Shown piece after piece: positions 1,702 through 16,343 of a stretch of DNA of 64,000 nt. Every line of letters begins with the position of its first letter. Position 1 is the first letter of the stretch. A program made the translations under genes and the position numbers. The notes beneath the pieces are model-generated. The model saw only the letters and a list, made by a program, of their open reading frames with translations. It made no database searches and was not told the DNA's origin. The stretch is from a virus: positions 1,237 through 65,236 of the IMG/VR virus record IMGVR_UViG_3300009514_000018; one strand, 5' to 3'.

Positions 1702-3807
1702 ATGGGCAGCAACAAGCGGTATATTCACGGATCGGGAGCCCGGTACTTCCTCCGGGAGGAGGATCTCGATCCCCTCCCTTCCGAGGAGGAGAGCCCCAAC
1801 CTCGCGGCGGAGATCATGGTGACGGCGGCGGAGGGGCTGCAGGATCCCCTCCTGCTCGAGGATGGGGAAGCCGATCCGGAGTTCGACTACCTCTCGTCCG
1901 ATATGACCGACCAGGAGATCGCCCACGACGCCGTGGAGATCCTGGATGAGGGGGCCCTCCGGGAGCCCATTCTTCCTCCGGAAGAATGGATCGAGAAGAT
2001 CCACTTCGCGGGGCCGCACCAGTACGAACTCTGGCCCGGGGTGAAGGCTGACTTCGTCACCATAGTGAACCGCTTTTTGCATCGGGACACGAGCAAGAAC
2101 GAGGAGGGAAAAGAGGCGGAGGAGCCCCTGAATTTGGGCATCCTGACGGGCGGGATCGGGGCCGGGAAGACCCGATGTGCCGAGGTGGTCCTTCAGTACC
2201 TCATCTACTGGCTCCTCTGCCACGCCTCTCCGGCCAAGGCCATCGGCATGGTCGCCAGCGCCACTATCAACATCGCCATCTTCTCCACGAAGTTCGACAA
2301 GGCAAAAAAGGTGATGTACAAGCGCCTTCGGCGGTACATCGACAGCACCCCCTGGTTCAACGAAAATCACCCGCCAGATCACAACATTCGGAACTCGATG
2401 GAGTGGCCGGAAGGCATCGTTGTCGCGCCTTATCCTTCCACGGTTCAGTCCGCCATTTCGGAGGATATGTGGCTCGCGGTCCTCGATGAGGCCAACTTCT
2501 GGATCTCCAGCCCCGAGGCGGACCGGGTGGACGAGGTCTATCTCTCCCTTCGGCGAAGGATGAGTTCCCGCTTCGAGGAGTATGACGAGAGGTGGCTGAT
2601 TCTGGCCGTCTCTTCGGCCACGGATCACAACTCTTTCACCGAAAAAGTGAGGCCCGACGCGGGCATTATTCTGTCCAGATCCAAGTGGGAAGCGAAGGGC
2701 GAAACCTTCGAGGGGGAGCCCCGCTTCCTCATCGATCTCGGGAACCAGCAGGTGGCCCCCCGGATCGTCACCGACAGGAAGGACAAGATCCATGGCCGCC
2801 TCCTCCGGGTGCCCGTCCGGTTCCAGAAGTCGGCCAAGGCCGACCTGTCCAACTTCCTCCGTGAGACCTACGGTATCGGTGTGCAGACCCAGCGGCGCCT
2901 CTACGGGTCCTGGCTCCAGGGCTATCCGTGGGAGCCACCCACCTCAGAGGGGGACGAGTTCTACGTGGATCCCGATCCCGCAGCGGAGATCCCCAAGCCC
3001 CGGCTCCTCGACTCCCCCATTGGCAGGTGCATCCATGTGGACCTCGCCGTCTCGGGCGACTGGGCCGGTATCTCCTGCGGCTACGTGGAGGACACCGAGT
3101 GGAAGGAGGTAGAGGAGGGTATCATGGAGCTGGTCCCCCGGGTGGTGGCCGACTTCGTGATCCGCTGGCGCTCCAAGATCAAGGCCGAGGAGCTGCCCCT
3201 CGAGAAGGTGAGGGAGCTGATCATCTGGATCGCCCAGCATATCCCGGTCCTCCGGGTGACTTTCGACGGCTGGCAGAGCAAGGACTCTATCCAGCAACTC
3301 AACAAGCGGGGCATCGTGGCGGAGCTGCTCTCCGTGGACAGGTCCCCCGCCCCTCACCACTATCTCAAGCGCCTCCTCGCCGAGCGCCGGATCCTCGTCC
3401 CCTATTCCTCCGCCCTTGTCTCCGAGCTAATCAACCTCATCGTCAACCCTACCAACGGGAAGATCGACCACCCCAAGCGGGCCCGCGGGGAGGGGGTCAA
3501 GGGATCCAAGGATATGGCGGATGCCCTGGCCGGCATGGCCTACTCCTGTCACCAGACCCTCGAGGGCACCGCCGATGTCCTCGCCCCCGCTGATCTGGAG
3601 TTCGTCATTCTGGGTCAACCTCGAAATCGCCCAGTTGAACCTGGGAACGCCCTGGCTCAGGAGAAGCCAGGGGAGGAAGCTCCTTCTCAGAAGCCGCAGT
3701 CGTACCGGACCGTTTCCCAGAAGTCTTCGGCACAACCATTCGACGATGAGCCGCAACCGAGACGATTCTTGGGATCTCTTCACCGTTTGGTTCGTCCTGG
3801 AGGATAG
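1702..3807 (+). CDS. terL: Terminase large subunit
   Basis: Walker A GILTGGIGAGKT, Walker B LAVLDEA, nuclease motifs IHVDLA, VTFDGWQS and KDMADALAG. Confidence 0.93.
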   Translation: MGSNKRYIHGSGARYFLREEDLDPLPSEEESPNLAAEIMVTAAEGLQDPLLLEDGEADPEFDYLSSDMTDQEIAHDAVEILDEGALREPILPPEEWIEKIHFAGPHQYELWPGVKADFVTIVNRFLHRDTSKNEEGKEAEEPLNLGILTGGIGAGKTRCAEVVLQYLIYWLLCHASPAKAIGMVASATINIAIFSTKFDKAKKVMYKRLRRYIDSTPWFNENHPPDHNIRNSMEWPEGIVVAPYPSTVQSAISEDMWLAVLDEANFWISSPEADRVDEVYLSLRRRMSSRFEEYDERWLILAVSSATDHNSFTEKVRPDAGIILSRSKWEAKGETFEGEPRFLIDLGNQQVAPRIVTDRKDKIHGRLLRVPVRFQKSAKADLSNFLRETYGIGVQTQRRLYGSWLQGYPWEPPTSEGDEFYVDPDPAAEIPKPRLLDSPIGRCIHVDLAVSGDWAGISCGYVEDTEWKEVEEGIMELVPRVVADFVIRWRSKIKAEELPLEKVRELIIWIAQHIPVLRVTFDGWQSKDSIQQLNKRGIVAELLSVDRSPAPHHYLKRLLAERRILVPYSSALVSELINLIVNPTNGKIDHPKRARGEGVKGSKDMADALAGMAYSCHQTLEGTADVLAPADLEFVILGQPRNRPVEPGNALAQEKPGEEAPSQKPQSYRTVSQKSSAQPFDDEPQPRRFLGSLHRLVRPGG

Positions 3808-4165
3808 CGATCCGCCATTCTCCGCCGAAGGAGATCGATCCGTTGATGAGGGCCACGAGTTGCCTAGTCCACGCAATCCCACAACACCTCAGTCCGTTTT
3901 CCGCGAGGGTGAGGTAGTCTGTCATCCGTTTCGGGGGCAGGCAGGGGACCTCCTCCCCGACCCCCACCATGACCAGCTTCTGCTGCTGGTCTGTGAGGTA
4001 GGCCTTCCTCTCACCTAGCTTCGCGTACTCCTGATCGATCTTGTCGAGTTCGGGGTGAGCCCCGGTCTTGAGGATCTTGCGCCAGATCTCCATCTGCTTC
4101 TCGATTGCCTCGAGCTGCTCGTCGATGATGTTCTGGAGCATTAGGATGGTCTTTTCGTCTATCAT
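3605..4165 (-). CDS. Hypothetical protein with N-terminal coiled coil
   Basis: GGAGGAG RBS before ATG at 4165 (MIDEKTILMLQ...). The 3' part overlaps the terL tail antisense and is less certain. Confidence 0.5.
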   Translation of the reverse strand: MIDEKTILMLQNIIDEQLEAIEKQMEIWRKILKTGAHPELDKIDQEYAKLGERKAYLTDQQQKLVMVGVGEEVPCLPPKRMTDYLTLAENGLRCCGIAWTRQLVALINGSISFGGEWRIAILQDEPNGEEIPRIVSVAAHRRMVVPKTSGKRSGTTAASEKELPPLASPEPGRSQVQLGDFEVDPE

Positions 4166-4370
4166 GTTCTCCTCCAGGGAAAAGGTAGTAGTCCCCAGTG
4201 TGATGGACGAGCGGGAGGATGTCAATACGTATTCAGTGGAACGGTACTTTTGGGTAAAGCACTTTGGGGCGCTTTAAGCAAGCGCCCGGGCCAGTGCGGA
4301 GCCCTTCGTTATTGTGAGGAATCACTACAACGATTCTTTTGTATATATCCGTCCTGCTAGGAGGAGTCTC

Positions 4371-4901
4371 TTACCAGGCAACCCACATGCCCATGGTTGG
4401 GTCGAAGCGGAAGGTCCTGGTCTCGTAGGGAACCGTGAATACGAAGTTGGGCGCAGGGGGTCCAACCAAGCCAGGGTAGACCACTCCAGGACCACCGAGG
4501 ACATCGACGGGGTTGCTGAGGGGATCCGGGACTGTCACTACGACAGTGTTGCCCGGGGCCATGAGGGGGGTGATGTCCAGGGTTACAGCTGCTGCGGAGC
4601 CATCCAGCAAGACGTGGTAGTCACCGATCACTGCAGGCTCGATGTGAGGGGCTGGTGGAGCAGGGGGCACCACCATCCGGATGTTCTTCATCTCGGGCCC
4701 AATCTGAATCTGACTGATCTGGACGCGCTCGCCGATTGCAGTCTCGGCGCAGGTCAGGAAGGTGGCCCCGGCCATGGACTTCATCTCCATGGTCACGCGA
4801 TCGTTGGGCTCGTCGTAGGCGACTTCGAGCACGGTTGCGGAGGGACCGCCGATCTCCTCTACCTGGATTCCGTCTTCTCCAAAAACTACTTTCTTTGGCA
4901 T
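4371..4901 (-). CDS. Hypothetical protein, beta-rich and virion-like
   Basis: AGGAG RBS, phage-typical codon usage, Pro/Val/Gly-rich beta sequence. Confidence 0.7.
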   Translation of the reverse strand: MPKKVVFGEDGIQVEEIGGPSATVLEVAYDEPNDRVTMEMKSMAGATFLTCAETAIGERVQISQIQIGPEMKNIRMVVPPAPPAPHIEPAVIGDYHVLLDGSAAAVTLDITPLMAPGNTVVVTVPDPLSNPVDVLGGPGVVYPGLVGPPAPNFVFTVPYETRTFRFDPTMGMWVAW

Positions 4902-4955
4902 CTTACTTCTCCTTCTGAGAGTTGGGTTCCAGGGTCACAAGCCTCTCAGCTGGGC

Positions 4956-5249
4956 TTAGCTGGGCTCGGTGCTCCAGCCGTTGGAGTCCAGGACGCCCTC
5001 GAGGTTATTGTTGATGTAGAACTCGATGGAGTTGTCCGTCGCGTTGAACTTCACGTAGGCGGTATTCGCCGCGTTCAGGTAGACGGTCTTCTCCCCGGTT
5101 CCGGTGTCCGTACTGACGAGGTTGTTCAGCACGATGATGACACGGTTGATGAAGTTCTCCAGGAGATCCTGGTACTTCTTTACGATTCCACTGCCGTCCA
5201 GCTGGCTTCTGCCATAGACGCGCCGAGTGCGGAGCAGCTCCAAAGCCAT
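4956..5249 (-). CDS. Hypothetical protein resembling a fibre segment
   Basis: AGGAGG RBS; sequence TVYLNAANTAYVKFNATDNSIEFYINN resembles fibre beta segments. Confidence 0.7.
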   Translation of the reverse strand: MALELLRTRRVYGRSQLDGSGIVKKYQDLLENFINRVIIVLNNLVSTDTGTGEKTVYLNAANTAYVKFNATDNSIEFYINNNLEGVLDSNGWSTEPS

Positions 5250-5421
5250 GATTTCTCCTCCTTTGCAGGTGGGTCCCTTGTATCCGTTCCTATGTTGTTA
5301 TTTCTCGCACAGTTCTGGGAGGATTTCAAGCGTACCTGCCCCATGAAAGAAAAGCCAACCGTTTTTCCTTCCACAGAGAATAAAATTTATCAAAGCGTAA
5401 TAGACTATCAGTATTCTCTGA

Positions 5422-5449
5422 TTGCCTTTTGTTCCAAGCCATGTAGGAT
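5422..5449 (+). promoter_or_regulatory. Possible sigma70-like promoter
   Basis: TTGCCT-N16-TAGGAT in an AT-rich divergent intergenic region. Confidence 0.4.
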
Positions 5450-5470
5450 GAGTAGTAGAGACAGCATTTA

Positions 5471-5488
5471 TGAATATGCGCATATTCA
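5471..5488. promoter_or_regulatory. Perfect 18-bp palindrome (candidate operator)
   Basis: TGAATATGCGCATATTCA, directly before the GGAG RBS of the 5499 gene. Confidence 0.6.
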
Positions 5489-5498
5489 CGGAGTAACT

Positions 5499-6116
5499 AT
5501 GGATTACCTGGAACTTGCGAGCAAACTCAAAATTTCACAGAATATGGCTCGCAATATGCTGTCCGACAGGGGAACATCGCCGTCTTTACGGAGCCTTCCT
5601 TTTGAGGACATCAAGGAGATCTATCGGAGGGGGACGGAGCGGGAAGGTAGAACCAACTTCTCCCAGTTACGACCCGAGGAGTGGAGCAAGGTTTTCGGGC
5701 AAGAATGGGAGAAGATTCGTCGCTGTATGCGGTTAGTCGGATTAGGTCTTTACTCGGCCAAGATGCCCATCTTGGAAATTCGTGCGCTCTTTTTGTGTGA
5801 ACCGACCGAAGATGAGCCTGGCGACGTAAGTGAGCGGTTTATGGGAGTTTTCTCACACAACCTCGCCAGGGATAGATGTTACCGCCCTACCCTGGTACGC
5901 TCCAATGGTGATGGATCCTTCTCCACAATTCTGGGCCTCAATGAGACTCAGAAGTTGATGAGGGACAAAACCAAGGGGTTCAAGGCTCATGTTTCCCAGT
6001 GGGAGCGATTGGTGCCAGGGATCACCCCCTTTCTGACCAAAAGGAGGGACGGATTCTATGAAACCACTGAATACGTCGAAGTGATACGTAAGAAAATCAG
6101 GCAATCCCCTACTTGA
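5499..6116 (+). CDS. Putative DNA-binding protein (N-terminal HTH-like, C-terminal degenerate ParB-like segment)
   Basis: Likely true start at ATG 5499 with GGAG RBS, inside the tracked 4314..6116 ORF. YLELASKLKISQNMARNML is HTH-like; RPTLVRSNGDGSFSTILG loosely resembles ParB-N. Confidence 0.5.
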   Translation: MDYLELASKLKISQNMARNMLSDRGTSPSLRSLPFEDIKEIYRRGTEREGRTNFSQLRPEEWSKVFGQEWEKIRRCMRLVGLGLYSAKMPILEIRALFLCEPTEDEPGDVSERFMGVFSHNLARDRCYRPTLVRSNGDGSFSTILGLNETQKLMRDKTKGFKAHVSQWERLVPGITPFLTKRRDGFYETTEYVEVIRKKIRQSPT

Positions 6117-6164
6117 CAAGATAACACTCCGTGGTGAAGCATAGACCTGAAAAGAGAGGTTGGA

Positions 6165-6428
6165 ATGGAAGCTGTCGAGCCGGTTTACTTCTGGTGCCTT
6201 ATCTGCTCGCTCAGGACTGAGTGTGGGTCGCTTCAATGTGGTCCTTCCCGGTTTCCCAAGTTCTCCCCTCTCGAGAACTTGAGCCCCAACGTTTATTTCC
6301 TGTGTCCCCTATGCGGAGGTCCTACTGATGGCAGAAGAGAGCGGTGCAACTACTGTCGATGTGGCGAATCTGGAAGTCCGGAACCTGGGCGGGATGGATT
6401 CACCAACCGGCAAGGTAATCCGATCTAA
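6165..6428 (+). CDS. Small Cys-rich zinc-finger protein
   Basis: CLIC, CPLC and CNYC motifs; GAGG RBS; overlaps the portal start by about 100 bp. Confidence 0.4.
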   Translation: MEAVEPVYFWCLICSLRTECGSLQCGPSRFPKFSPLENLSPNVYFLCPLCGGPTDGRRERCNYCRCGESGSPEPGRDGFTNRQGNPI

Positions 6429-7926
6429 GCAGCTCCGCGATCCCTTCACCGAACTCTATCGGGAAGGGATCGTCATGGAGCCTCCCTTCGATCCTGACCT
6501 ATGGGCGGAGCTGGTCCTCATCTCCACTCGCTATAATCAGCTTCTCAGGGTCTATGCCAGGAACACGGCTGGTCTCGGGTGGAAGGTCGTTCCCACTGTG
6601 GAGATCTCCAGGAACTCTTCCGAGGAGCTGAAGAAGCAGGTAGCCACGGACATCGAAATTCTCAAGAAGTTCTATGGTTACCCCCATACTGCCGAGCAGT
6701 CACGGGTCTGGATGGAGGAGTCCTTCAGTGAGCTTCTCTTCAAGATGGCGGTGGATCGGGAGGCCATCGGCAACGGGTATCTTGAGGTCTCCAAGAACCT
6801 TCAGGGGAAGCCAGCGGGAGTGTGGCACATCCCGGGGTCTACTGTCAGGCTCAGGGCGGATCTCGAGGGTTTTGTCCAGTACTCTGCGGGTCATTCGGAG
6901 TTCGTCTACTTCAAGAACTTCGGTGACCCAAGGATCATGGACTCACGCTCTGGGGAGTTCGTTAACAAAGAGAAGGAAGAAATCCCCCTCAAGTATCATG
7001 CGAACGAGATCATCCACTTCCCTCTCTACTCTCCCATCTCGACTCACTATGGCTTCCCCAGGGGAATTGCCTCCAACCTGGCCATGACTGGTTCCAGGGC
7101 CGCGGCCTTGAGGAATTATGCTTTCTTCGATAACGACGCTGTTCCTCGAATGGCAGTCCTGGTTTCTGGCGGGTCTATTCCAGAGGCTTCCCTCCAGAGA
7201 ATGGAGGAGTACTTCGCGGCCAGGGGCAAGGGGGCTGACCTGGCTCATCGGGTGGTGGTCATCCACGCTCAGCCAGGGCAGGGGGTAGTAGCGGCGCCCA
7301 CCATCAAGCTCGAGCCTCTCACTGTCGGGAGCACTGATGATGCTTCCTTCACTACATATAGAGAGGCCAACGACAAGGAGTTGAGAGAGGCCTTCGGACT
7401 TTCCGAGCTTCACCTCGGTACCGAGGGGTCGGCCAACAGAGCAGCGGCCATGACCATTCTGCGGCTGGTCAACCAGCAGGAGTTCTTCCCTGCCATCCTG
7501 GAGTTGGAGTATCGCCTGAACGCGACCATTTCCAAGGCTCTTGGCGTTCAGACCTCGGCTCTCCAGCTTGTCAGGCCGAAGGCTACGGATCCTCTGGATG
7601 AGGCCAAAGTACTTCAGCGGGCCCTTCCTGCTGGGGCTGTCGCTCCCAGGGACTTCAGGAAGTGGATCGAGACTACGCTCGGTTTCGACTGGCCACCAAT
7701 GACTGAGCCCTGGACCGAGATTCCCTTCACCCTCCTCCTGACGCTCATCCGAGGTGAGCAGATTCAGCTCGGGGAGGCCGAGCAGATTCAAGAGTCGATG
7801 AGGGATATGGTCGATGAGTTCGATACCTCCAGCGATCAGGGGGCGGTCAAGGAGTTCATCGACGATCTGAACATCGGTCTTGAGGAGCTGAAGAATGCCA
7901 TCTCTCTCCAGTCTCAGCACAGATAA
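6328..7926 (+). CDS. Portal protein (PBSX/HK97-like)
   Basis: Motifs GNGYLEV, NEIIHF, YGFP and FFDNDAVPRMAVLVSGG; located after terL. Confidence 0.9.
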   Translation: MAEESGATTVDVANLEVRNLGGMDSPTGKVIRSKQLRDPFTELYREGIVMEPPFDPDLWAELVLISTRYNQLLRVYARNTAGLGWKVVPTVEISRNSSEELKKQVATDIEILKKFYGYPHTAEQSRVWMEESFSELLFKMAVDREAIGNGYLEVSKNLQGKPAGVWHIPGSTVRLRADLEGFVQYSAGHSEFVYFKNFGDPRIMDSRSGEFVNKEKEEIPLKYHANEIIHFPLYSPISTHYGFPRGIASNLAMTGSRAAALRNYAFFDNDAVPRMAVLVSGGSIPEASLQRMEEYFAARGKGADLAHRVVVIHAQPGQGVVAAPTIKLEPLTVGSTDDASFTTYREANDKELREAFGLSELHLGTEGSANRAAAMTILRLVNQQEFFPAILELEYRLNATISKALGVQTSALQLVRPKATDPLDEAKVLQRALPAGAVAPRDFRKWIETTLGFDWPPMTEPWTEIPFTLLLTLIRGEQIQLGEAEQIQESMRDMVDEFDTSSDQGAVKEFIDDLNIGLEELKNAISLQSQHR

Positions 7927-8308
7927 GCTGCGGCGTCGGCACGCTGCCCTCCACACAATTTACTCTTGGTTGGTCCAGGGGTTTCCCCAAGGGGACTGGG
8001 ACAAGGAGTCTTTGGCTGAAGCTCACGAGGCTTCGGCTAAGGAACTGGAGCGCCGAGGGATTCAGCACGAGTCCCCTCTGGGAGAGGGTAGGCCGGACAG
8101 GTCTTCTCACAGTCGCCATGATATCGGGGCTATGACAGACGACGAAGTTTTACATGTCCACGCCAACCTGCATAGCCTGGCCTCCAAGATTCGCCAGGGC
8201 GTTGTGGGTACTGGCTGGACCATGGAGCAGGTCATAGCGGAGCACGAAATTGTAGTTCCTGAGCTGACAGGTAGGGGCTTCGAACACAACTCACCACTTG
8301 AGGGATAG
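7895..8308 (+). CDS. Protein made of two His-rich ~58-aa repeats
   Basis: Two copies of H-x3-H...W...H...RG-x2-H-x-SPL; a third copy lies in the next gene. Confidence 0.75.
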   Translation: MPSLSSLSTDKLRRRHAALHTIYSWLVQGFPQGDWDKESLAEAHEASAKELERRGIQHESPLGEGRPDRSSHSRHDIGAMTDDEVLHVHANLHSLASKIRQGVVGTGWTMEQVIAEHEIVVPELTGRGFEHNSPLEG

Positions 8309-8310
8309 AA

Positions 8311-11300
8311 ATGACTGAAGGAGTATACGTAAGAGAGGTCCTTGCTGAACTCATCAAGAGCGGTGAGAAGACAGCTATCGTGTCTGGCTCTCCTATCAAG
8401 TGTTCTGAGGGGAAGGTCTTGGTTGGGGGTCGGAAGGCTCTTGGGATCGTAAAGCTGGGGTCTCCCGAGAAGATCAGCGGGACTGACTTTGACGAGCGAG
8501 CTGAGGCTCACATGATCTCAAAGGCTGACAAGAAGAAGCTCTGGCCGAGGAGGAAGATTCTCTTCTTCCACGAAATCGAGAGCTTCACTCCTTTTTCTGA
8601 GGAGCAGCCTGTTTCGAGCCATGGTCAGGCTGGCAACCTCATCAAGTTTTCCTTCGTGGAGGAGGGTAAGAGACATGCTGCCGTGATGCTGGATCTCGAT
8701 GGGACAGTCCGTGAGTCTACGGGGCCTGCTCCCTTTCCTTCTTCGGCGTCCGAGGTCAGACTCATCGAGGGTGTCATTCCCGCCATGATGGCTTGGCGGA
8801 GGAAGGGATATGCCCTCTTCGCTGTCAGCAACCAGGCTGGCGTAGCGAGGGGGACCATCACCGAGGAGGATTTCTGGGACACTTACAAGAGGACTCAGGA
8901 GCTTCTTGGTCCGGCAGCCTTCGATGATGTCCGGGTGGCCTTCGGTCCTGTGGAGTCTCCCGAGAGGAAGCCATACCCGACGATGGGGCTGGAGCTGGCC
9001 GCGGCCCATGATCTCTCTTTGAGGAATTCCTTCTATGTAGGTGATCGGGATGAGGATGCCGAATTCGCTGCAAACCTCAGCGTCTACTTCATTCCCTCCA
9101 GAAACCTCACTGGCTTCACTCCTCCAGATCTTGATTCCAAGCTGGTGCCCTTCCCATCCAAGCTGGTGAAGATGCAGCGGAACGAGGTCCTCGAGGACCT
9201 CAGTGACCAGGAGCTGCTCGGTGCCCACTATTATGCTCACTCCGCCTGGAACAAGCTGAAGGACGGCGGGAAGTTCGGGGACTGGACCAAGGAGGATGTG
9301 CAGACCTTCCACGACAGGATCGTCCGCGACATGGAGAGGCGTGGTATCCCCCATGACTCTCCCCTTAAGAGTCTCTCGAAGACGCCCCAGCTTCTCCGTG
9401 ATCACATTGTGGCCCACAAGAGCAACAACCAGGAGCTTCATGATCAAGCCGTGGCTGGACTCAAGGAAGCTGGTATCGAGCATCCAGGGATGTCGGAGGA
9501 CAACTCCATGGACAAGTCCTGGGTCCAGAAGGGAGGTTTCCTTCCGGTAGGTGGCTCCGGCGTCCAGAAGGGCACAGAGGTCCTCAAGGTTGAGGACATC
9601 GTTGAGAAGCTTGCTGGTCATACGGCTCACCTTCGTATGCCCTTCGTTTACCTGACCGGTGGTCTCGTGAACCGCGGGGAGACCGAGGGGGACATCGACA
9701 TTTTGCTTCGCTGCGAGGATGGGGAGCTGGGTGACAAGCTGACTCGCCTTATCCAGTGGAGAATCCTGAGATCCCTCCCCAAGGAACAGTGGGATCGGGT
9801 AGAGTTCCTCTTCGACGAGGATCATGGTCCCTTCACGAGCCACATCCCCCTCTTCGCGCTGACCCTTACTCCCTTGGAGCCCCAGGAGATCAAGATGGCT
9901 CTGGAGAAGGCCCAGGCGGAGATTAGCAAGTCGGTGAGAGTGGGCTCCTTCTTCAAGATGGTGAAGCCTATCAAGCCCGCTAAGCCAGGTCAGCGTCAGA
10001 GCCCCGAGGCCTTCTTGGAGCTATTCACCGGGGGATGGCCCTGGGAAGTCACCAAGAAGTACGATGGGGTTCACGTCCAGGTCCACAAAAGCGGCGACTC
10101 GGTGAAGATCTTCACTGAGGATGGGACGGACATCACCTCCAAGGTCCCCGGCGTGATCAAGGTTGTCAAGGAAGTTGTTCCTGGAACAGCGATTCTGGAC
10201 GCGGAGCTGGAGAAGTGGGATGGACGAACTCACATCCCGAGAGAAGAGGCAGCAGCTTTCCTCAACTCCAAGGAGGGAGACGACATCGGTGTACTCCTCA
10301 ATGTCTTTGACATGCTGCACAACGGTCAGGATCTTACTGGTCAGCCTCTCTCAGCTCGCCGGGCCCAGATGAAGAAGGTTTCCTGGCCCCAAAGCACAAT
10401 GGGCGTCCCTTCTCACTCTGCCAGGCTCAACATGGCTCCCGCCGTAGAGGTGAAGGATAAGAAGGAACTGAGCGAAGCTCTCAGCAAGATTCGGTACTTA
10501 CCTGGGTCTGAGGGTGTCGTCGCCAAGAAGCTGGACTCTACCTATCCCACTGGGAAGGATCGGACCAACGATTGGGTCAAGTTCCACAACGTCGGGGTGG
10601 TGACCGGAGCTGTCATCGAGCGAATCGAGACCAAGACCAAGGGGGTGTACAACTACCTTCATGGTCTTCGTCGTGGCGACCGTGCAGTGGTTGATCCTGT
10701 TGTCCAGGCCGGGGAGTTCAGGGTGGTTCCAGCGGGGAAGACTTTCTCCTCCGATAGAAAGTTCGAGCCCGGAGATCTCATTCCCATCGAGTTCGAGACC
10801 TTCAACTACTTCGTGCAGGACGATGGCCAGGTGAAGGTGTCCCTCTGGGCACCCCGTATTCTGGATGAGGAGCCTGCTGAGGCTCCCCACACCATCGGTG
10901 ATGCGATGAAGATTGCTGAGAAGGAGAAGATCCTTTCCAGCAAGCTTCCTGACGAAGAAGAGCAGGAAGAAGGCAAGGAAGAGGAGAAGGCTCAGGAGGA
11001 AGTGGATAAGGCCCCCGCCGAGATCTCCGAGGAGGTAGGCCTGGAGGGCGAGGATCCTGTAGCGGCCATCGTTGGGAAGGCGGCCATGGGAGTAGGCCTC
11101 TTCGGTGCCTCCGCGTCCAGAGAGGTAGAGTCTTCCATATGGAAGTCTGCTGTGGAGGTTTTCGATGGGGACGGGGTGGTCTTTTCGGTTGGGAGGGAGT
11201 ATGAGGCTAGCGGTACTGATTTCGTTCATCTGGCTGATACTCTGTCTGCTTGCAAGGGAGGCTGGGTGATCGAGGTCGGGAAGAAGCATGGTCCCTATCT

Positions 11301-13209
11301 CGACTACATGGCTCTCAAGGGAGCTGAGGTCGCCACAGAGACAGAAGAGTCCGTCTTCTTCGCCAAGGCTGGGCTGACAACAGAGTCCTTCGATTCGGGA
11401 GGGCGTCTCGCCTCTGAGCAAGGCAACCGGTTCGAGCGGCCCTGGGAGGAGCTGGGGTGGAAGAAGCCCAGCTTCAAGAGTGGTGGTGAACCAGGAACCT
11501 TCATCCACGCGAGGGTAACGGATGATCTCTTTCCTTACCTTGCCGATGCCTGGGAAGTCCTCCTTGAGTCAGGTGGAACTCCAGAGTTCTATCCCCATGT
11601 GACTATTCTCTACAAGCCCAACGAGACGGTGGAGCTGCCAAAGGATCTTCCAGCCAATGTGCAGGTGAAGCTTGAAGCCGCCCCTGACAAGTTCAGGGGC
11701 TTCGATGGAGACAATGGGATCTGGCTTCCAGTCAGGTCGCCTCAGGCTGCGGAGCTTCATGAGCGACTCGAGGAAGAAGAGGGGAAGATCTTCACTCCCC
11801 ACATCACCATCGGCTACATCGATGATCCTGATAGGGCTCTCGGTCGCATCAGAGAGATCTTCGAAGGGGTTCAGCTGGAGTGGTTAGGAGATATCTTTGC
11901 CTCCTACCGCAAGAAGTTTTTGGAGAAGGGGAGTGACCCCTACATGGACGCTCCTCCCGAAGGAGAGGGTAGGGACTACATCTTCCAGCGACACTTTAGA
12001 GGCAAGACCGAACATATCGACTTCCGGATCAAGGGGAGCAAGGGTTTCCTTATCGGTTGGACCATCGCCGATCTCATAGCCGGGGCCATCAAAGATCCCG
12101 TGGAGACGGTCGAAGAGGCCAAAGCGATCCCCCAGAGTGCCTTCAAGGTGAACCTCGATACCGGAGAGTTCGTGCGTCGTCCTCCCCGGGAGGGTCAAAA
12201 GGAGGGGGCCCGGGCTGAGATCGTGGCTCGGAGGAAGGCACCGGAACCTCTCCCTTGGATGGAGGTCGAGGGGGTGGTTCCAGCAGGGAAGGGTACGGAA
12301 GAGGGTATCTCTCCCGGGGCGACCAAGAACTTCCCTGGTGTCTTCATCATCGACGGGAAGGGGAAGCTCCACTTCGGGACCCAGAAGCCTCACTTCCATG
12401 AGTACTTCCTCGAGGACGGCCCCATCAAGGGGCGGCTCATGTTCCGACAGCTCTCCACCGAAGCTATCGAGAAGGGCTTCTTGGAGGAGGGGGTAGTCAA
12501 GGCCATGGTTACTGTCCCCTCGGAGGAGCAGGACTTCAAGAGTGAGCTGGCCTGGTTTGCTATCCAGCCGGAGGATCAGGAACCATACGTTCTCTCCAAC
12601 AGGGCGTCCAAGCAGGGATGGATTCCGTCGAAGGGAGTGTCTGCCCTTCCTCTATGGGTGAAGAGCAAGATCCCGGATGAGTTCCAGTACTGGGCGCATT
12701 CAGAGGAAAAGAAGCGTAAAGAGGTGCGTGACGCACTCAGGGAATCCATAAAGAGGGATGAAACGAAGGTTTCTTTCGAGAAAAAGGCCGAATCAGGGGA
12801 TTTCTCTATTCAGCGACAAACTTTTCGGGGTCAGACTGTAGTCAGGGAGGGCCCTTCCCTGACGAAGTGGCACTTCACTGTACGGAACGGAGAGAAGTTT
12901 CATTTCCTCGCTGAAGGACCGGATCCTTTCAAGGAATCCGAGGCTTCATTTCTCTTGACAGAGGGTTTCCCATACGACAAGATGTTCTCTGAAGGTGATG
13001 TTCCCCCTGGAAGCCCCTTAAATGACACGAAAGACACTCCTTCCTCTATCGAAGTCGTTGATCGAGGTAAGGCTACAGTCCTTATTGACAATCTCGATGC
13101 GAAGAAGGTAGAGATCAAGGGAAAGAAGATTAACGGGGTCTTTTTCTTCCGCAAGGGGGAGGGAGATATCTGGACGATGACCAGGTCGAAGGGACCGGAG
13201 GTGGAGTGA
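8311..13209 (+). CDS. 1632-aa multidomain nucleic-acid end-repair protein (ASCH-like, HAD phosphatase, nucleotidyltransferase, ATP-dependent ligase, 2H phosphodiesterase, LigD PE-like x2)
   Basis: DLDGT, SNQAG, RKP and VGDRDED (HAD-IIIA); LTGGLV..GDIDIL (Pol-beta NTase); KYDG, LDAEL, VFDML, EGVVAK and WVKF (ligase); PHVT and PHIT (2H); FQRHFRG..HIDFR..GW (LigD PE-like). Confidence 0.85.
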   Translation: MTEGVYVREVLAELIKSGEKTAIVSGSPIKCSEGKVLVGGRKALGIVKLGSPEKISGTDFDERAEAHMISKADKKKLWPRRKILFFHEIESFTPFSEEQPVSSHGQAGNLIKFSFVEEGKRHAAVMLDLDGTVRESTGPAPFPSSASEVRLIEGVIPAMMAWRRKGYALFAVSNQAGVARGTITEEDFWDTYKRTQELLGPAAFDDVRVAFGPVESPERKPYPTMGLELAAAHDLSLRNSFYVGDRDEDAEFAANLSVYFIPSRNLTGFTPPDLDSKLVPFPSKLVKMQRNEVLEDLSDQELLGAHYYAHSAWNKLKDGGKFGDWTKEDVQTFHDRIVRDMERRGIPHDSPLKSLSKTPQLLRDHIVAHKSNNQELHDQAVAGLKEAGIEHPGMSEDNSMDKSWVQKGGFLPVGGSGVQKGTEVLKVEDIVEKLAGHTAHLRMPFVYLTGGLVNRGETEGDIDILLRCEDGELGDKLTRLIQWRILRSLPKEQWDRVEFLFDEDHGPFTSHIPLFALTLTPLEPQEIKMALEKAQAEISKSVRVGSFFKMVKPIKPAKPGQRQSPEAFLELFTGGWPWEVTKKYDGVHVQVHKSGDSVKIFTEDGTDITSKVPGVIKVVKEVVPGTAILDAELEKWDGRTHIPREEAAAFLNSKEGDDIGVLLNVFDMLHNGQDLTGQPLSARRAQMKKVSWPQSTMGVPSHSARLNMAPAVEVKDKKELSEALSKIRYLPGSEGVVAKKLDSTYPTGKDRTNDWVKFHNVGVVTGAVIERIETKTKGVYNYLHGLRRGDRAVVDPVVQAGEFRVVPAGKTFSSDRKFEPGDLIPIEFETFNYFVQDDGQVKVSLWAPRILDEEPAEAPHTIGDAMKIAEKEKILSSKLPDEEEQEEGKEEEKAQEEVDKAPAEISEEVGLEGEDPVAAIVGKAAMGVGLFGASASREVESSIWKSAVEVFDGDGVVFSVGREYEASGTDFVHLADTLSACKGGWVIEVGKKHGPYLDYMALKGAEVATETEESVFFAKAGLTTESFDSGGRLASEQGNRFERPWEELGWKKPSFKSGGEPGTFIHARVTDDLFPYLADAWEVLLESGGTPEFYPHVTILYKPNETVELPKDLPANVQVKLEAAPDKFRGFDGDNGIWLPVRSPQAAELHERLEEEEGKIFTPHITIGYIDDPDRALGRIREIFEGVQLEWLGDIFASYRKKFLEKGSDPYMDAPPEGEGRDYIFQRHFRGKTEHIDFRIKGSKGFLIGWTIADLIAGAIKDPVETVEEAKAIPQSAFKVNLDTGEFVRRPPREGQKEGARAEIVARRKAPEPLPWMEVEGVVPAGKGTEEGISPGATKNFPGVFIIDGKGKLHFGTQKPHFHEYFLEDGPIKGRLMFRQLSTEAIEKGFLEEGVVKAMVTVPSEEQDFKSELAWFAIQPEDQEPYVLSNRASKQGWIPSKGVSALPLWVKSKIPDEFQYWAHSEEKKRKEVRDALRESIKRDETKVSFEKKAESGDFSIQRQTFRGQTVVREGPSLTKWHFTVRNGEKFHFLAEGPDPFKESEASFLLTEGFPYDKMFSEGDVPPGSPLNDTKDTPSSIEVVDRGKATVLIDNLDAKKVEIKGKKINGVFFFRKGEGDIWTMTRSKGPEVE

Positions 13210-14807
13210 TGAATTTGAACACTGAAACCTTCCCGGTCGAGGTCAGCTACGCTGTTCCCATTCTGAAAGCCAGCGAGAATCCCCGGACTGGAGACTGGGT
13301 CGTTGAGGGCTTTGTTGCCACAGCCGACTTAGATCTTCAGGGGGACGTGATCACCGAGAGCGGACTCAAGGAGGGGGCCGAGACGCTCAACGAAGCCAAG
13401 ACTCTCCTCTGGAACCATGACGTAAACCAGCCCATTGGAAAACTCCTCCTTGCCAAGGTGAAGGACAATGGGATCTGGGTGCGAGCCGTTGTCGATAAGA
13501 CCTCGGAGATGGGTCAGCAGGTCTGGAAGTGGGTCAAGGAAGGGATCATCTCGCGTTTCTCGATCCGGGGAGATGCACTGGCTTCGACAAAGGGGTACAT
13601 CAAGGGTAAGCTGGTCAACCTTCTGACCAAGCTTCGCCTCATCGAAGCTTCTCTTGTCACCCTCCCAGCGAATCCAAAAGCCGAAGTAATGAACTGGTAT
13701 GTGGCCAAGTCCTTTGAGGGCTACTACAGGCCTATAGAGGAATTCTTCCACCAGGAAGTGATTCCTCTCGTTTCTACGGAGACCGGATTCGAGGGGACGG
13801 TGGAGGTGGGAAAGCTGGCCGGGGATGTTGCTGAGGGCATCGAGGCCTCCCCTACCGTGTGTAAGAACAGCGACTCCAATCCCGTGGGCGTAGTGGAGGA
13901 GGTAGCCAAGATCGATGACGGCAACCTCTATCTCAAGATCCGCTACGCTTCCTCGGCCCAAGGAACCGAAGGTGGTGTCTTTGTCCGCGGGAAGATCTTG
14001 AAGTCAGGCAATAGTGAGGTCCTGGGATTCCTTCCCCGGGGCGTATGGATTCTCGACAAGGAGACAGCCATGAACAAGAACTTGGAAGGGGCCCAGGATG
14101 CCATCAAGCAGCTGTCGGCGCTCGGTGAGCAGCTGAAGGGCCTGCAGGATCAGTTCGCAAAGATGACCGAAACCATCTCCAAGCTCAAGGTGGAGGAGCC
14201 CAAGGTGGAGCAGCACGCTGGCTCGACCAAGGCTCAGATGCCTGAGGAAGAGGAGAAGGAGTGCAAGCCTCTCGAGGAGAAGGCTCAGATGCCTCCCGAG
14301 GAGAAGCCCACCGAGGAACCCTCGGTGAAGGCGACTCCCAAGGAGGAGGAGAAGCCCCCCGAGGAGCCTTCCACGATGGCCGACAAGCCCGAGGAGAAGC
14401 CCATGGAGGAGGAGAAGGCCGAATCTCCCAAGGAGGAGAAGTATCCCCTCCCCGAGCCCAAGAATAGGGACGAGGCGAAGTCCACCCTGAAGAGGGTGCT
14501 CCTTCTCGCCGCCAGGGCTCTCAGCAAGGGCCAGTACGAAGATATTGCCAAGAAGCTCGAAGGCCTCAGCGAGGCCGAGATGGAGGAGCTGAGTAAGAAC
14601 CTCCTCGAAGAGAAGAAGGACAATACCCCCGCCGCCAGTTCCGATTCGACCGCGATCCTCGAGGCCATCAAGAGCCTCCAGGAGACCATCTCGCAGGCGC
14701 CCGCCTTCCAGAAGGGTGACTCCAAGGGTGGCAGGGTCGAGAAGAAGGGTGACGAGATTCCCTGGACTTCCGGGTTGGTGTACCCCCACTTCAACCAGGA
14801 GCAGTAG
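13209..14807 (+). CDS. HK97-type prohead protease fused to a C-terminal scaffold-like region
   Basis: VEGFVAT..DLQGD, LLWNHD, FSIRG and EASLVTLPANP motifs; E/K/P-rich coiled-coil C-terminus; TGATG coupling to the upstream gene. Confidence 0.9.
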   Translation: MNLNTETFPVEVSYAVPILKASENPRTGDWVVEGFVATADLDLQGDVITESGLKEGAETLNEAKTLLWNHDVNQPIGKLLLAKVKDNGIWVRAVVDKTSEMGQQVWKWVKEGIISRFSIRGDALASTKGYIKGKLVNLLTKLRLIEASLVTLPANPKAEVMNWYVAKSFEGYYRPIEEFFHQEVIPLVSTETGFEGTVEVGKLAGDVAEGIEASPTVCKNSDSNPVGVVEEVAKIDDGNLYLKIRYASSAQGTEGGVFVRGKILKSGNSEVLGFLPRGVWILDKETAMNKNLEGAQDAIKQLSALGEQLKGLQDQFAKMTETISKLKVEEPKVEQHAGSTKAQMPEEEEKECKPLEEKAQMPPEEKPTEEPSVKATPKEEEKPPEEPSTMADKPEEKPMEEEKAESPKEEKYPLPEPKNRDEAKSTLKRVLLLAARALSKGQYEDIAKKLEGLSEAEMEELSKNLLEEKKDNTPAASSDSTAILEAIKSLQETISQAPAFQKGDSKGGRVEKKGDEIPWTSGLVYPHFNQEQ

Positions 14808-14870
14808 AGCGAAGGCCACAAAGGCTAGTTCCCGGCCAGTAAGGCCACAAGAAACCATGGAGGACAAAAC

Positions 14871-16343
14871 ATGAGCTGGATGCTGCAGAACGAACAGCGT
14901 ATCCGCAAGGCTTTGGAGGCCTTTGAGAGTGGGGCCTTCGCGCACGGTGGCGCACTGAACCCCGAGCAGGCCAAGCAGTTCCTGCGGATCATCAGAGACA
15001 ACACGGCGGCCCTCGGCGCCATTCGCCTCGAGGAGATGGATCGTCTCCAGAAGGATATCGACAAGCTCTTTATCGGGGAGCCGGTGTCCGAGCACGTTCT
15101 CGAGGGACATGGACCTCCCGCCGCCAACGAGGTTCGCAGACCCGTGTTCGCACGGGTGCAGCTGGACTGCAACAACAAGAAGATCCGTTCCGTGTGGCCT
15201 GCCACCACGGAAGCCCTGCAGACTGGTATCGAGCGGGGCCGTCAGATGGAGCAGACCCTCTTCGAGTCCGCCGTGCAGAAGGTGGGCGACGATCAGGAGT
15301 TCCTCTTCTGGCAGGGTGATACCGCCTTCGCCGGTGGGATCACCCCCGCCGCCAAGCTCCTCGAGACCACCGACGGTATCGGCAAGATCTCCAGGGGAGC
15401 CCATATTCTCGACGCCGAGGGCGCTGTGATCTCCCACGAGCTGTTCGCCGTGGCGATCCGCACCCTTCCCAAGCACGTCATCCCCAGGCCGGATCTCCGA
15501 TGGTGGATGTCCGTGAACACCGCGATCGACTGGATGTCCGTCTTCGGTGACAGGCAGACCGGTGGCGGAGATGCGGCCATCGAGGGCAGGATGATCAAGC
15601 CCTACGGTATCCCCATCTTTTCCAAGAGCTACGATGGTGTGGAGCGCTACGGCGTGCCCCACATCCCATCGGATCTCCCCCTGCCCGTGTCCACCGACAG
15701 CCCGGCCTATGCGAAGGGCGTGCTGAACGGACCCTTCACCATCGATGCGACTCCCGGCTCTCCCACCAAGAACAATCTCCTCGAGCTGCAGCTCGATGGT
15801 GTGGCGGCTAACGTCGTGATCACGTTGCCTGCGGGCGTCTGGACTGTGTCCGAGATCGCCGGGTTCGTCAATGAGGATCTGGCTGCGGATGTGAATTACG
15901 GAATCAACTACGCTCACGTCGCCTCGAACGACGGCTTCGGCCACCTGGTCTTCGAGAGCCCCACTGTGGGCGCCGCTTCCAACATCAGCCTGCATTCCAC
16001 CACTCCGGCTGGTGAGCAGGCCTACACAACCTTCGGGTTCCCCAGCCCCGGTGTGGGCCCCATCCCTGATCCCATGTCATACGATGGTGAGACGGGAGCT
16101 TCCGGTGACGCGGTGGTTTACGAGGGCAGCTGGTTCCTCCTCTCTCCCGCCAAGCTGATGATCATGGGTCTCTATACCGGCCCCGCTGGTGGCCAGAGGA
16201 AGACCGGTCTCAGGGTCTACTCCGACTTCCGTCCCGAGGAGGATACCCTCAAGCTCTTCATCTACTGGCAGACCGATGTCAAGGTGGAGAACCTGGACGC
16301 CATGGTCCGCGTGGACAACGTCCGTCAGCTCAACCTGGCCTAA
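14871..16343 (+). CDS. Major capsid protein with an inserted domain
   Basis: Follows the protease; GGAGG RBS; GALNPEQAKQFL N-terminal motif of P2/PBSX-like capsid proteins; strong codon bias. Confidence 0.88.
   Translation: MSWMLQNEQRIRKALEAFESGAFAHGGALNPEQAKQFLRIIRDNTAALGAIRLEEMDRLQKDIDKLFIGEPVSEHVLEGHGPPAANEVRRPVFARVQLDCNNKKIRSVWPATTEALQTGIERGRQMEQTLFESAVQKVGDDQEFLFWQGDTAFAGGITPAAKLLETTDGIGKISRGAHILDAEGAVISHELFAVAIRTLPKHVIPRPDLRWWMSVNTAIDWMSVFGDRQTGGGDAAIEGRMIKPYGIPIFSKSYDGVERYGVPHIPSDLPLPVSTDSPAYAKGVLNGPFTIDATPGSPTKNNLLELQLDGVAANVVITLPAGVWTVSEIAGFVNEDLAADVNYGINYAHVASNDGFGHLVFESPTVGAASNISLHSTTPAGEQAYTTFGFPSPGVGPIPDPMSYDGETGASGDAVVYEGSWFLLSPAKLMIMGLYTGPAGGQRKTGLRVYSDFRPEEDTLKLFIYWQTDVKVENLDAMVRVDNVRQLNLA

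Follow-up and report, generated by a model that had tools for sequence, protein, structure and literature searches.

Lysine motifs at the domain junctions of a giant phage multi-enzyme protein as candidate processing sites for the neighbouring HK97-type head protease

A locus in the 64,000-nucleotide stretch of DNA analysed here (the window; positions 1,237 to 65,236 of IMG/VR virus record IMGVR_UViG_3300009514_000018) raises the question of whether a very large multi-enzyme protein encoded among phage head genes is cut into separate enzymes by the head maturation protease. The locus comes from an uncultured phage, and all of the features described are on the forward (+) strand. The gene for the giant protein, identified by its open reading frame and translation, is at positions 8311–13209 and codes for 1,632 residues (~180-kDa). 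It is followed by a gene (13209–14807) coding for an S78 prohead protease (about residues 1–170) fused to an acidic coiled scaffold, which is located between the portal gene (6328–7926) and the major capsid gene (14871–16343; phrog_1623, 3.4e-40), whose product is XkdG-like and carries a large insertion. The enzyme array and the protease are separate chains in this phage, encoded by adjoining genes. The TGA of the giant gene overlaps the probable protease ATG at 13209 (TGATG; start context read from the sequence), and there is a GGAGG Shine-Dalgarno sequence 8 nt upstream of this ATG; through this arrangement the two genes are translationally coupled. The array is placed between portal and protease both here and in all related loci, and is thus among virion and late genes, and the protease gene is directly after the giant gene in every related locus having downstream DNA.

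The giant protein contains at least seven domains as determined by Pfam, PDB sequence matches, AlphaFold and Foldseek. The order is an N-terminal domain, an HAD/PNK-type 3'-phosphatase, His-rich helical repeats, a small nucleotidyltransferase, an ATP-dependent ligase with an OB domain, an acidic linker, an unknown domain, a 2H phosphoesterase, and a tandem LigD-3'-phosphoesterase-like module. The Pfam matches are PF08645, PF01068 and PF13563, and the PDB sequence matches are to DNA ligases and HAD phosphatases. The model of the C-terminal module has a pLDDT above 90, and Foldseek matches it to the LigD phosphoesterase structures 3n9d, 3p43, 3n9b, 3p4h, 2lj6 and 5dmp with a probability of 1.00 (target TM-score 0.56–0.81). 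The metal-binding and catalytic motif of the LigD 3'-phosphoesterase superfamily is His...His-x-Asp-x-Arg. A comparable pattern here, Q-x-H-x-R-G-x3-H-x-D-x-R, is invariant across the four close homologues, and its H, R and G are near-invariant among 144 family members; the two His are spaced one residue further apart than in Pseudomonas LigD. By its modelled fold the module belongs to this superfamily, and it may have the corresponding activity. Pfam and PHROG searches of the giant protein gave no match to a known capsid-targeting domain, whether MuF, portal-binding or of another kind, or to an embedded MPTase-type peptidase.

The protease matches PF04586 (residues 58–162; 40.9 bits against a gathering cut-off of 21) and phrog_80, head maturation protease (1.8e-18). 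BLASTP pairs WNH(71)D of the protease with FNH(65)K of HK97 gp4, and its RFS(119)I with GMS(114)V; H65 and S114 are the catalytic His and Ser of gp4. On these alignments it is an HK97-type S78 enzyme, with a predicted specificity for Lys. HK97 gp4 (MEROPS/Pfam S78) and gp5 resemble the present proteins in Pfam family, in the aligned His and Ser, in the location of the gene between portal and capsid, and in a Lys 10–12 residues past the PAN strand in both proteases. A preliminary description of this DNA had taken the HK97 protease to cut after Lys, in agreement with its published cut site, K103/S104 (PMC10275583), and the HK97 delta domain, which is degraded, has six K-[AS] dipeptides in 103 residues. 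The motifs that it placed on either side of the protease domain are both present, and the two differ in what they appear to be. VAKS (13701–13712; K168/S169, with a slash here and below marking the candidate bond) closes the protease core 12 residues past the PAN strand; its Lys is kept in all relatives, with S, L, Q, S, S, A and A as followers, and the HK97 gp4 counterpart is PAN-x10-K/S. ILKA, ahead of the core (13260–13271), also has a conserved Lys position, with a variable follower (A, A, F, H and H in relatives, and EIK/F in HK97), and the equivalent strand in the protease fusions reads hPhhK, then T/A/S/V/K. ILKA thus looks more like part of a structural strand than a K-[ASG] site.

Several sites are present in the scaffold (14229–14717), including TK/AQMP and EEK/AQMP (at the start of a Glu/Pro-rich stretch), EEEK/A, and FQK/G near the C-terminus. 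In the related locus L003, K/AQLP is kept and RK/S is in place of QK/G. EKAQ occurs three times in the giant protein and scaffold, and six 4-mers, all located in stretches rich in Glu and Lys, are seen at least three times in these two proteins compared with 1.3 in shuffles. By tblastn the capsid protein matches genes for capsid proteins and XkdG in phages of Bacillus, Clostridium and Streptomyces. The motif IRKA, said to open it, is indeed present at residues 11–14 (IRK/A; 14901–14912) and is a candidate site at which a short propeptide may be cleaved off. This Lys is conserved in nine diverse capsids, 13–16 residues before a GG.L..EQ motif, and is followed by Ala or Val: IRK/A in the window, L003 and L007, LEK/A in L004, LLK/A in L010 and L011, IEK/A in B83, VNK/A in Clostridium phage C2, IEK/V and LEK/V in Streptomyces phages, and LAK/A in RcMenchie. 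The residue ahead of the Lys varies (E, R, N, A or L).

Within the giant protein, K-[A/S/G] motifs had been reported at six positions close to domain borders. All of the motifs listed for the giant protein, protease, scaffold and capsid were found, and five of the six giant-protein positions are inter-domain according to Pfam, AlphaFold and homologue alignment; the exception is the IEKG and VVKA pair, which is in an intradomain loop. At the junction of the helical repeats and the nucleotidyltransferase (residues 400–421; 9508–9573) there are three sites, MDK/S, WVQK/G and GVQK/G, in or beside a segment with pLDDT<50 (residues 390–420; AlphaFold). WV[QE]KG is present in both close homologues, and because the local identity there is 56–64% its conservation is not specific to Lys. 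The nucleotidyltransferase/ligase junction (residues 529–541; 9895–9933) contains MALEK/A and EISK/S (the LEKA and ISKS motifs, residues 530–541, nt 9898–9933), and AlphaFold gives pLDDT<50 for residues 503–546. K540, followed by S, S, G and G, is invariant in four of four homologues at a local identity of only 12–40%; EKA, AKA or TKA precedes the ligase in relatives, and in many relatives the nucleotidyltransferase domain ends ...EM..[EA]K[QA]. The acidic linker past the ligase OB domain (residues 876–946; 10936–11148), which has low pLDDT, contains EEEK/A and VDK/A, with IWK/S (K945) at its end. K945 is just ahead of the first strand of the next domain, and K945-S is aligned with LK/S and LK/A in both homologues at a local identity of 8–12%. 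At the junction of the 2H domain and the phosphoesterase module (residues 1203–1208; 11917–11934) FLEK/GS is followed by DPYMD (LEKG, residues 1204–1207, nt 11920–11931), and K1206 is 2–3 residues ahead of a rise in AlphaFold pLDDT from about 62 to above 90. The coil between the module halves (residues 1489–1493; 12775–12789) contains FEKK/A between a helix and a strand, with pLDDT about 83–94; K-G and K-A are present there in P0006 and P0007, and the site is not conserved family-wide (K 32, D 19, N 18 and A 17 of 145). IEK/G and VVK/A (residues 1385–1398; 12463–12504) are in a loop insert within the first phosphoesterase-like domain, a 10-residue block of pLDDT 53 in surroundings above 90, and this is not a domain boundary. 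Two of the sites on the list are inserts specific to this lineage: the IEKG and VVKA loop is missing from P0006 and P0007, and EEKA and VDKA (residues 890–901) are in an acidic insert that has no counterpart in either.

K-[ASG] is found 39 times in the whole giant protein, compared with 29.6 +/- 4.5 by shuffling (p 0.027; this and the other enrichment p-values are exploratory, the motif having been picked after the sequence was read). The excess comes entirely from the C-terminal phosphoesterase module, which is folded (17 vs 8.6, p 0.002), with none in residues 1–1208 (22 vs 20.7), and [EA]K[AQGS] has no overall enrichment in the giant protein (6 vs 5.7). With so many K-[ASG] dipeptides in a folded module, the motif is not enough to mark a site, and as defined it is too loose. 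Nor does A/S/G hold as a rule for P1': Gln is the commonest follower before the module, and K-R is common after it. Nine of the 15 K-[ASG] sites in residues 1–905 are in segments with pLDDT<50 that make up 23.6% of the residues (binomial p 0.003), noting that low pLDDT is in part a matter of shallow alignment, and Lys is followed by A, S or G in 43% of cases in these segments compared with 11.5% in the confident domains (Fisher p 0.005). The E-, R- and D-[ASG] control dipeptides in residues 1–905 have no such bias. The overall excess therefore sits in the folded module and not in linkers, with some signal remaining as the bias towards flexible segments in residues 1–905. Six of about 13 junction sites are conserved in both close homologues, compared with one of 26 intradomain sites (Fisher p 0.003), and in low-identity contexts among three close homologues the retention of K dipeptides is not above that of G, L, P or A controls.

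The C-terminal module defines a family of at least 600 protein clusters (50% identity). Half of the relatives (73 of 152 family representatives) have an XkdF-type prohead protease at the C-terminus of the same chain, in-frame, and Pfam confirmed a C-terminal protease (S78_2) in seven of seven fusions tested. With so many fused to the protease, placement of the arrays in the prohead and their release by cutting are likely. Among the 152 representatives, 74 of 118 residues (63%) aligned three positions before the Asp-Pro start of the module are Lys, with E or A ahead of it, then Q (53), A (22) or K (16), then x-D-P. [EA]K[AQGS] is 9-fold enriched at this position relative to the rest of the family proteins, and the Lys occurs across at least five unrelated upstream domain types. 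It is mostly missing from proteins that begin with the module, and so does not seem to be needed for folding. Past the module, in the variable linker, EK (43 vs 13.4, p 1e-10) and KA (33 vs 13.2) are the top enriched dipeptides, with the representatives being related to one another such that p-values overstate their independence. The EKR sequences among the post-module K-R dipeptides derive in part from the first strand of the fused protease itself (EKRLVTG), to which a part of the EK/KV signal also belongs. Family-wide, the parts of the proteins outside the module show no enrichment of K-G (observed/expected 0.92) or K-S (0.89). Lys is conserved family-wide at two junctions, as (E/A)-K-(A/Q), and at the capsid N-terminus, as K-A/V.

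We propose that the giant protein is a polyvalent, head-associated array of enzymes that heal and seal nucleic-acid ends, co-made with the S78 protease-scaffold and probably built into the procapsid. The protease, which may prefer Lys at P1 as HK97 gp4 does, would probably cut exposed junctions with E, A or a hydrophobic residue before the Lys and A, Q, G or S after it, the best candidates being K540 (and/or K533), K945, K1206 and perhaps K407. The same protease would trim the capsid N-terminus at K13/A14, degrade the scaffold, and free itself at K168/S169, after which the separated enzymes would exit together with the DNA. Cutting of the junction Lys motifs by the head protease inside the capsid is plausible on the sequence evidence, with about an even chance of being correct; that the giant protein is in the virion, that each of the cuts is made and that the enzymes are ejected is what we infer.

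An alternative explanation is that the motifs reflect composition and ordinary domain caps, with the giant protein packaged or acting uncut and the conserved Lys being structural or catalytic. Outside the folded module neither K-[ASG] nor [EA]K[AQGS] has an overall enrichment, EK[QA]xDP is at a fixed place in the module profile and could simply be an N-terminal cap belonging to the module, the Lys ahead of the protease core is part of a strand and its follower varies, low-identity contexts retain control dipeptides as often as K-[ASG], and the N4 virion RNA polymerase is a precedent for a giant protein packaged uncut (PMC5512222). However, the pre-module Lys is outside the confident fold and is mostly absent where there is no preceding domain, EK and KA are enriched in a linker that is variable in both length and sequence, and the shift of K-[ASG] into flexible segments is seen against clean controls. 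Moreover, in half of the family the protease is tethered to a cargo of more than 1,000 residues and would be expected to free itself, and we consider this explanation rather unlikely.

Head processing could also be real and occur at unlisted sites, either with another P1 or only in the acidic linker or near the termini, with the Lys motifs being coincidental. S78 specificity is documented only by HK97 K103/S104, we found no published specificity for XkdF-type proteases, Glu is the P1 residue for other head proteases (T4, phiKZ, SPN3US; PMC10052503), and the junction linkers are Glu-rich. This nonetheless seems improbable given that the best conserved residue of the pre-module linker is Lys (K 74 vs E 30 at the preceding position) and that the capsid Lys does not change across nine lineages, in contrast to the residue preceding it. 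It is very improbable that the giant protein is a non-virion protein, such as a late cytoplasmic repair or anti-defence enzyme whose gene is merely within the head module, for which head-protease processing would be irrelevant. Although known capsid-targeting domains (MuF, portal-binding or other) were not detected and the array is unfused to the protease in this phage, its portal-protease position is conserved in all related loci, 73 of 152 relatives are fused in-frame to a prohead protease, and the giant gene is translationally coupled to the protease gene.

Several known systems are close to this one. In HK97 the scaffold domain that is cut is part of the capsid protein, and there is no enzyme cargo. 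Here it is the protease that carries the scaffold, the XkdG-like capsid has only a short leader, and the proposed substrates include a 180-kDa enzyme array. Protease and scaffold are in one polypeptide, self-cleaving in the procapsid, in the herpesvirus assemblin-scaffold, P2 gpO, lambda gpC/Nu3 and PBSX XkdF; protease and scaffold are likewise one chain here, with self-cleavage predicted, but none of the others has upstream nucleic-acid enzyme arrays. T4 Alt and IPI-III (cut by gp21 at L/I-x-E), phiKZ gp175 and SPN3US gp245 (A-x-E) are cut by the head protease (PMC10052503, PMC9026906), and are prohead-loaded cargo cut by the capsid-maturing protease at a short motif common to capsid and scaffold. 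Those proteases are of the T4 type (S77) and cut after Glu, and the cargo proteins are separate gene products with leaders, whereas the protease here is of the S78/XkdF type, the motif is based on Lys, the cargo is a multi-enzyme chain that is often joined to the protease, and the cuts are predicted. The polyvalent proteins described by Iyer, Burroughs, Anand, de Souza and Aravind in 2017 have two to fifteen disparate domains per polypeptide (PMC5512222), and are similar to the giant protein in having unrelated enzyme domains in one chain, a head-gene location, and architectures that are highly variable between relatives. Their release by peptidases was proposed, through embedded zincin-like (MPTase) and other peptidases, with anchoring via MuF or portal (PMC5512222); in contrast, the prohead serine protease itself is here both the anchor and the candidate releasing enzyme, for a cargo that forms an end-healing/sealing kit. 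The main text of that study has no mention of DNA ligase, S78 or XkdF, and reports that 2H domains of polyvalent proteins are never seen with RNA ligases (PMC5512222).

If the junction cuts are real, the specificity of an HK97-type protease would set how a repair-enzyme kit (3'-phosphatase, nucleotidyltransferase, ligase, 2H enzyme and LigD-type phosphoesterases) is loaded and then released as separate enzymes, and the idea of processed ejection proteins in T4, phiKZ and SPN3US would extend to the far more common S78/XkdF proteases. Virion enzymes in their mature form could then also be predicted by rule from the sequences of hundreds of uncultured phages, and pre-made end-repair would be suggested as a counter to host nucleases that attack incoming DNA or tRNA by nicking or cutting. 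More tentatively, and at somewhat less than an even chance, a Lys-directed code of (E/A)-K then A/Q/S/G, read by S78/XkdF proteases, may organise an undescribed polyprotein class (at least 600 clusters) in which end-repair enzymes, methylases and other counter-defence enzymes would be loaded by protease fusion or coupling, cut at junctions, and injected with the genome. Relatives have other domains swapped in: Dam and C5 methylases, AdoMet decarboxylase, inteins and ligases. L004 has a separate weak MuF gene and, downstream of its giant gene, a Dam methylase-ligase-protease fusion.

The gene for the giant 1,632-residue protein (8311-13209, + strand) belongs to the head module. Ahead of it come the terminase large subunit (1702-3807), the portal (6328-7926) and the gene for a 137-residue protein (7895-8308); behind it follow an S78 prohead protease that carries an acidic scaffold in the same chain (13209-14807) and the capsid gene, whose product is XkdG-like (14871-16343). 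Comparison with Pfam and with PDB sequences places a HAD/PNK-type 3'-phosphatase at residues ~121-275 of the giant protein, an ATP-dependent ligase at ~550-870 and a 2H phosphoesterase at ~1126-1187; nothing in PHROGs matched the protein. In an AlphaFold model of residues 1-905 the HAD and ligase-OB domains are confident, with pLDDT below 50 in segments between confident domains (97-120, 276-289, 390-420, 503-546 and 878-895). A model of residues 880-1632, using a 71-sequence alignment, has pLDDT above 90 across ~1209-1629, and Foldseek matches this C-terminal tandem module to LigD 3'-phosphoesterase structures (probability 1.00). The His/Asp/Arg motif of the module is invariant among the close homologues. 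Modelling of residues 906-1208 is poor, since this region is present in few relatives. The terminase-portal gap (3807-6328) has a sole ORF of 600 residues with a GTG start (4314-6116), and the translation of its first half appears non-protein-like.

The preliminary description proposed that K-[A/S/G] motifs at the domain borders of the giant protein are cut sites for the neighbouring protease, and the strongest evidence bearing on this is the pattern in the wider family sharing the C-terminal module. A profile of the module recovers 1,295 representatives at 50% clustering (601 below 1e-30), in proteins of 335-2,241 residues in which the position of the module varies. Of the 118 residues aligned three positions upstream of the D-P-[YLF] start of the module, 74 are Lys; E or A stands before it, and Q (53), A (22) or K (16) comes next. 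This Lys recurs with five or more unrelated types of upstream domain and is mostly absent from proteins that start at the module. The 15 residues ahead of the module are ~9-fold enriched in the motif [EA]K[AQGS] and the 25 residues behind it ~3.5-fold, whereas K-[ASG] as originally defined is just ~1.8-fold enriched. An unbiased k-mer comparison of the post-module linker puts EK at the top (43 vs 13.4, p 1e-10), with KA in fourth place (33 vs 13.2). Nearly every linker leading from the module to a ligase has EKA, AKA, TKA or EKQ, in agreement with MALEK/A ahead of the ligase in the window protein. In the family, K-A reaches just 1.13 times its expectation outside the module, with K-G and K-S under 1; with Q the commonest residue after the pre-module Lys, the proposed rule of A, S or G at P1' does not hold. 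In family representative P0033, residues 396-738 are an intein with a LAGLIDADG endonuclease (Pfam PF14890, PF03161) in the ligase part of the polyprotein.

All of the motifs originally listed are present at their reported positions, and five of the six positions in the giant protein are true junctions. The exception is IEKG/VVKA (residues 1385-1398), a loop insert within the first phosphoesterase-like domain. The acidic sequence around EEKA/VDKA (within 876-946) is an insert lacking in homologues, and FEKKA (1489-1493) was rejected as a family-wide junction because its position is not conserved across the family. ILKA was downgraded as a cut site flanking the protease domain, as its Lys occupies a conserved place in a strand and the next residue varies (A, A, F, H, H and F). 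The weak elements of the proposal are the P1' rule, ILKA, FEKKA and both insert sites.

There are 39 K-[ASG] dipeptides in the giant protein compared to 29.6 +/- 4.5 expected, and the whole of this apparent excess is due to the folded module (window 11935-13209, residues 1209-1632), where 17 occur for 8.6 expected (p 0.002), K-G turns making up many of these; residues 1-1208 have 22 vs 20.7. The count of the narrower [EA]K[AQGS] matches expectation (6 vs 5.7), and we therefore do not regard global enrichment as evidence for a code. In residues 1-905 the distribution of sites is shifted, nine of the fifteen being in the pLDDT<50 segments, which account for 23.6% of residues (p 0.003, exploratory). 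In the same region A, S or G comes after 43% of the Lys residues in these segments and after 11.5% of those in confidently modelled domains (Fisher p 0.005, exploratory), and E-, R- and D-[ASG] and K-[other] controls have no comparable bias. The capsid and portal proteins are slightly poor in K-[ASG], a deficit that is not significant.

Only three relatives (P0006, P0007 and P0008) are of similar length and related over much of the chain, and the genes for all three have a portal gene on one side and a protease gene on the other. Both P0006 and P0007 retain K-[ASGQ] at 402, 407, 540, 945 and 1492, and by eye also at 1206, where the aligner split a gap. Only one of ~26 sites inside domains is kept (junction-vs-domain Fisher p 0.003 for P0006 and P0007). 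However, control dipeptides (G, L, P or A followed by A/S/G) are retained about as often in low-identity contexts among the three homologues, so K-[ASG] retention alone is not specific and we set it aside.

The main rival explanation, that the Lys residues are domain caps and the giant protein stays whole, appears rather improbable to us, at perhaps a little over one chance in four. Cleavage after Lys has a precedent in the HK97 protease, and the K-S cut cited in the preliminary description is confirmed by sequence and the literature as K103/S104 (PMC10275583); we found nothing usable in the literature on S78 or XkdF cleavage specificity beyond HK97. Processing of ejection proteins by a head protease is established for T4-type proteases, which cut after Glu (PMC10052503). 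For polyvalent proteins, Iyer et al. 2017 (PMC5512222) describe release by zincin-like peptidases embedded in them, and note that 2H domains were never seen with RNA ligases; the terms 'DNA ligase', 'serine peptidase' and 'S78' are absent from the main text of that paper, and 'prohead protease' is in its reference list alone.

A protease connection is evident among the relatives. An XkdF-type (S78_2) protease domain is at the extreme C-terminus of 73 of the 152 family representatives, right after the module or after the module plus a ligase, and Pfam confirmed the fusion in all seven tested. The protease gene is immediately next in all loci with downstream DNA, and in the related locus L004 the gene following the giant gene encodes a Dam methylase-ligase-protease fusion. 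The gene split in the window is exactly within the module-protease linker. The fusions in relatives, together with the adjacent protease gene, would place the arrays in the prohead and make their proteolytic release likely. The likeliest explanation, to which we give about even chances, is that the array is loaded together with the protease-scaffold and that exposed junctions would then be cleaved on the C-terminal side of Lys, with K540 and/or K533, K945 and K1206 as the best candidates. We rejected the idea that a programmed frameshift fuses the giant protein with the protease, because the overlap frames differ between the window and related loci L001, L003 and L004, and the window has a plain TGATG overlap (giant-gene TGA with protease ATG) with GGAGG 8 nt upstream.

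Lys positions are also conserved in the neighbouring head proteins. The capsid IRK/A is a conserved position: nine diverse XkdG-like capsids have a Lys 13-16 residues before a GG.L..EQ motif, and the residue after it is Ala (7) or Val (2). These include capsids of cultured Bacillus, Clostridium, Streptomyces and Rhodobacter phages; the search of deposited phages was by tblastn, as a word-based search matched the query alone. All relatives, and HK97 gp4 too, retain the VAK/S Lys following the PAN strand of the protease, with S, A, L or Q as the next residue; K/AQ[ML]P starts the acidic stretch of the scaffold in the window and L003. At 490 residues the window capsid is longer than its cultured XkdG-like relatives (~310-330); the surplus is an insertion (15620-16070, capsid residues ~250-400) that L003 and L007 also have and L004 lacks. 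Scaffolds in four related loci (L010:9206-10462, L011:1966-3261, L013:9558-12002 and L015:9588-12008) have Tyr-Pro repeat runs (YPYPYPYP, GYPYGYPY), and the L013 and L015 protease-scaffold proteins (806-814 residues) have a second large domain beyond them.

In L004 the protease strand E-[IV]-S-L-V-x-x-P-A-N is at the start of the scaffold ORF, after the S78_2 domain (15765-15870, compared with L016:1277-1380 and L017:1214-1330). In Bacillus phage B83 and Clostridium phage C2 the XkdF-like protein has the same strand at its N-terminus, and in Rhodobacter phage RcMenchie the strand opens the ORF following the protease. Its shifting place suggests a permuted or split fold in XkdF-type enzymes.

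The window is a section of a single viral contig of 75,191 bp that also encodes a family A DNA polymerase, a bacterial-type RecA and Dam, from which a bacterial host is likely. Together with the use of Shine-Dalgarno sites, these make an archaeal host, an idea arising from a match to ANMV-1 virus, unlikely. ANMV-1, a virus of archaeal ANME-1 (L006:3200-5800, KP703175.1), is the sole deposited phage or virus genome with the phosphoesterase module; the gene is annotated just as an ATP-dependent DNA ligase, with a MutT-like hydrolase gene upstream and a 1,166-residue ORF downstream.
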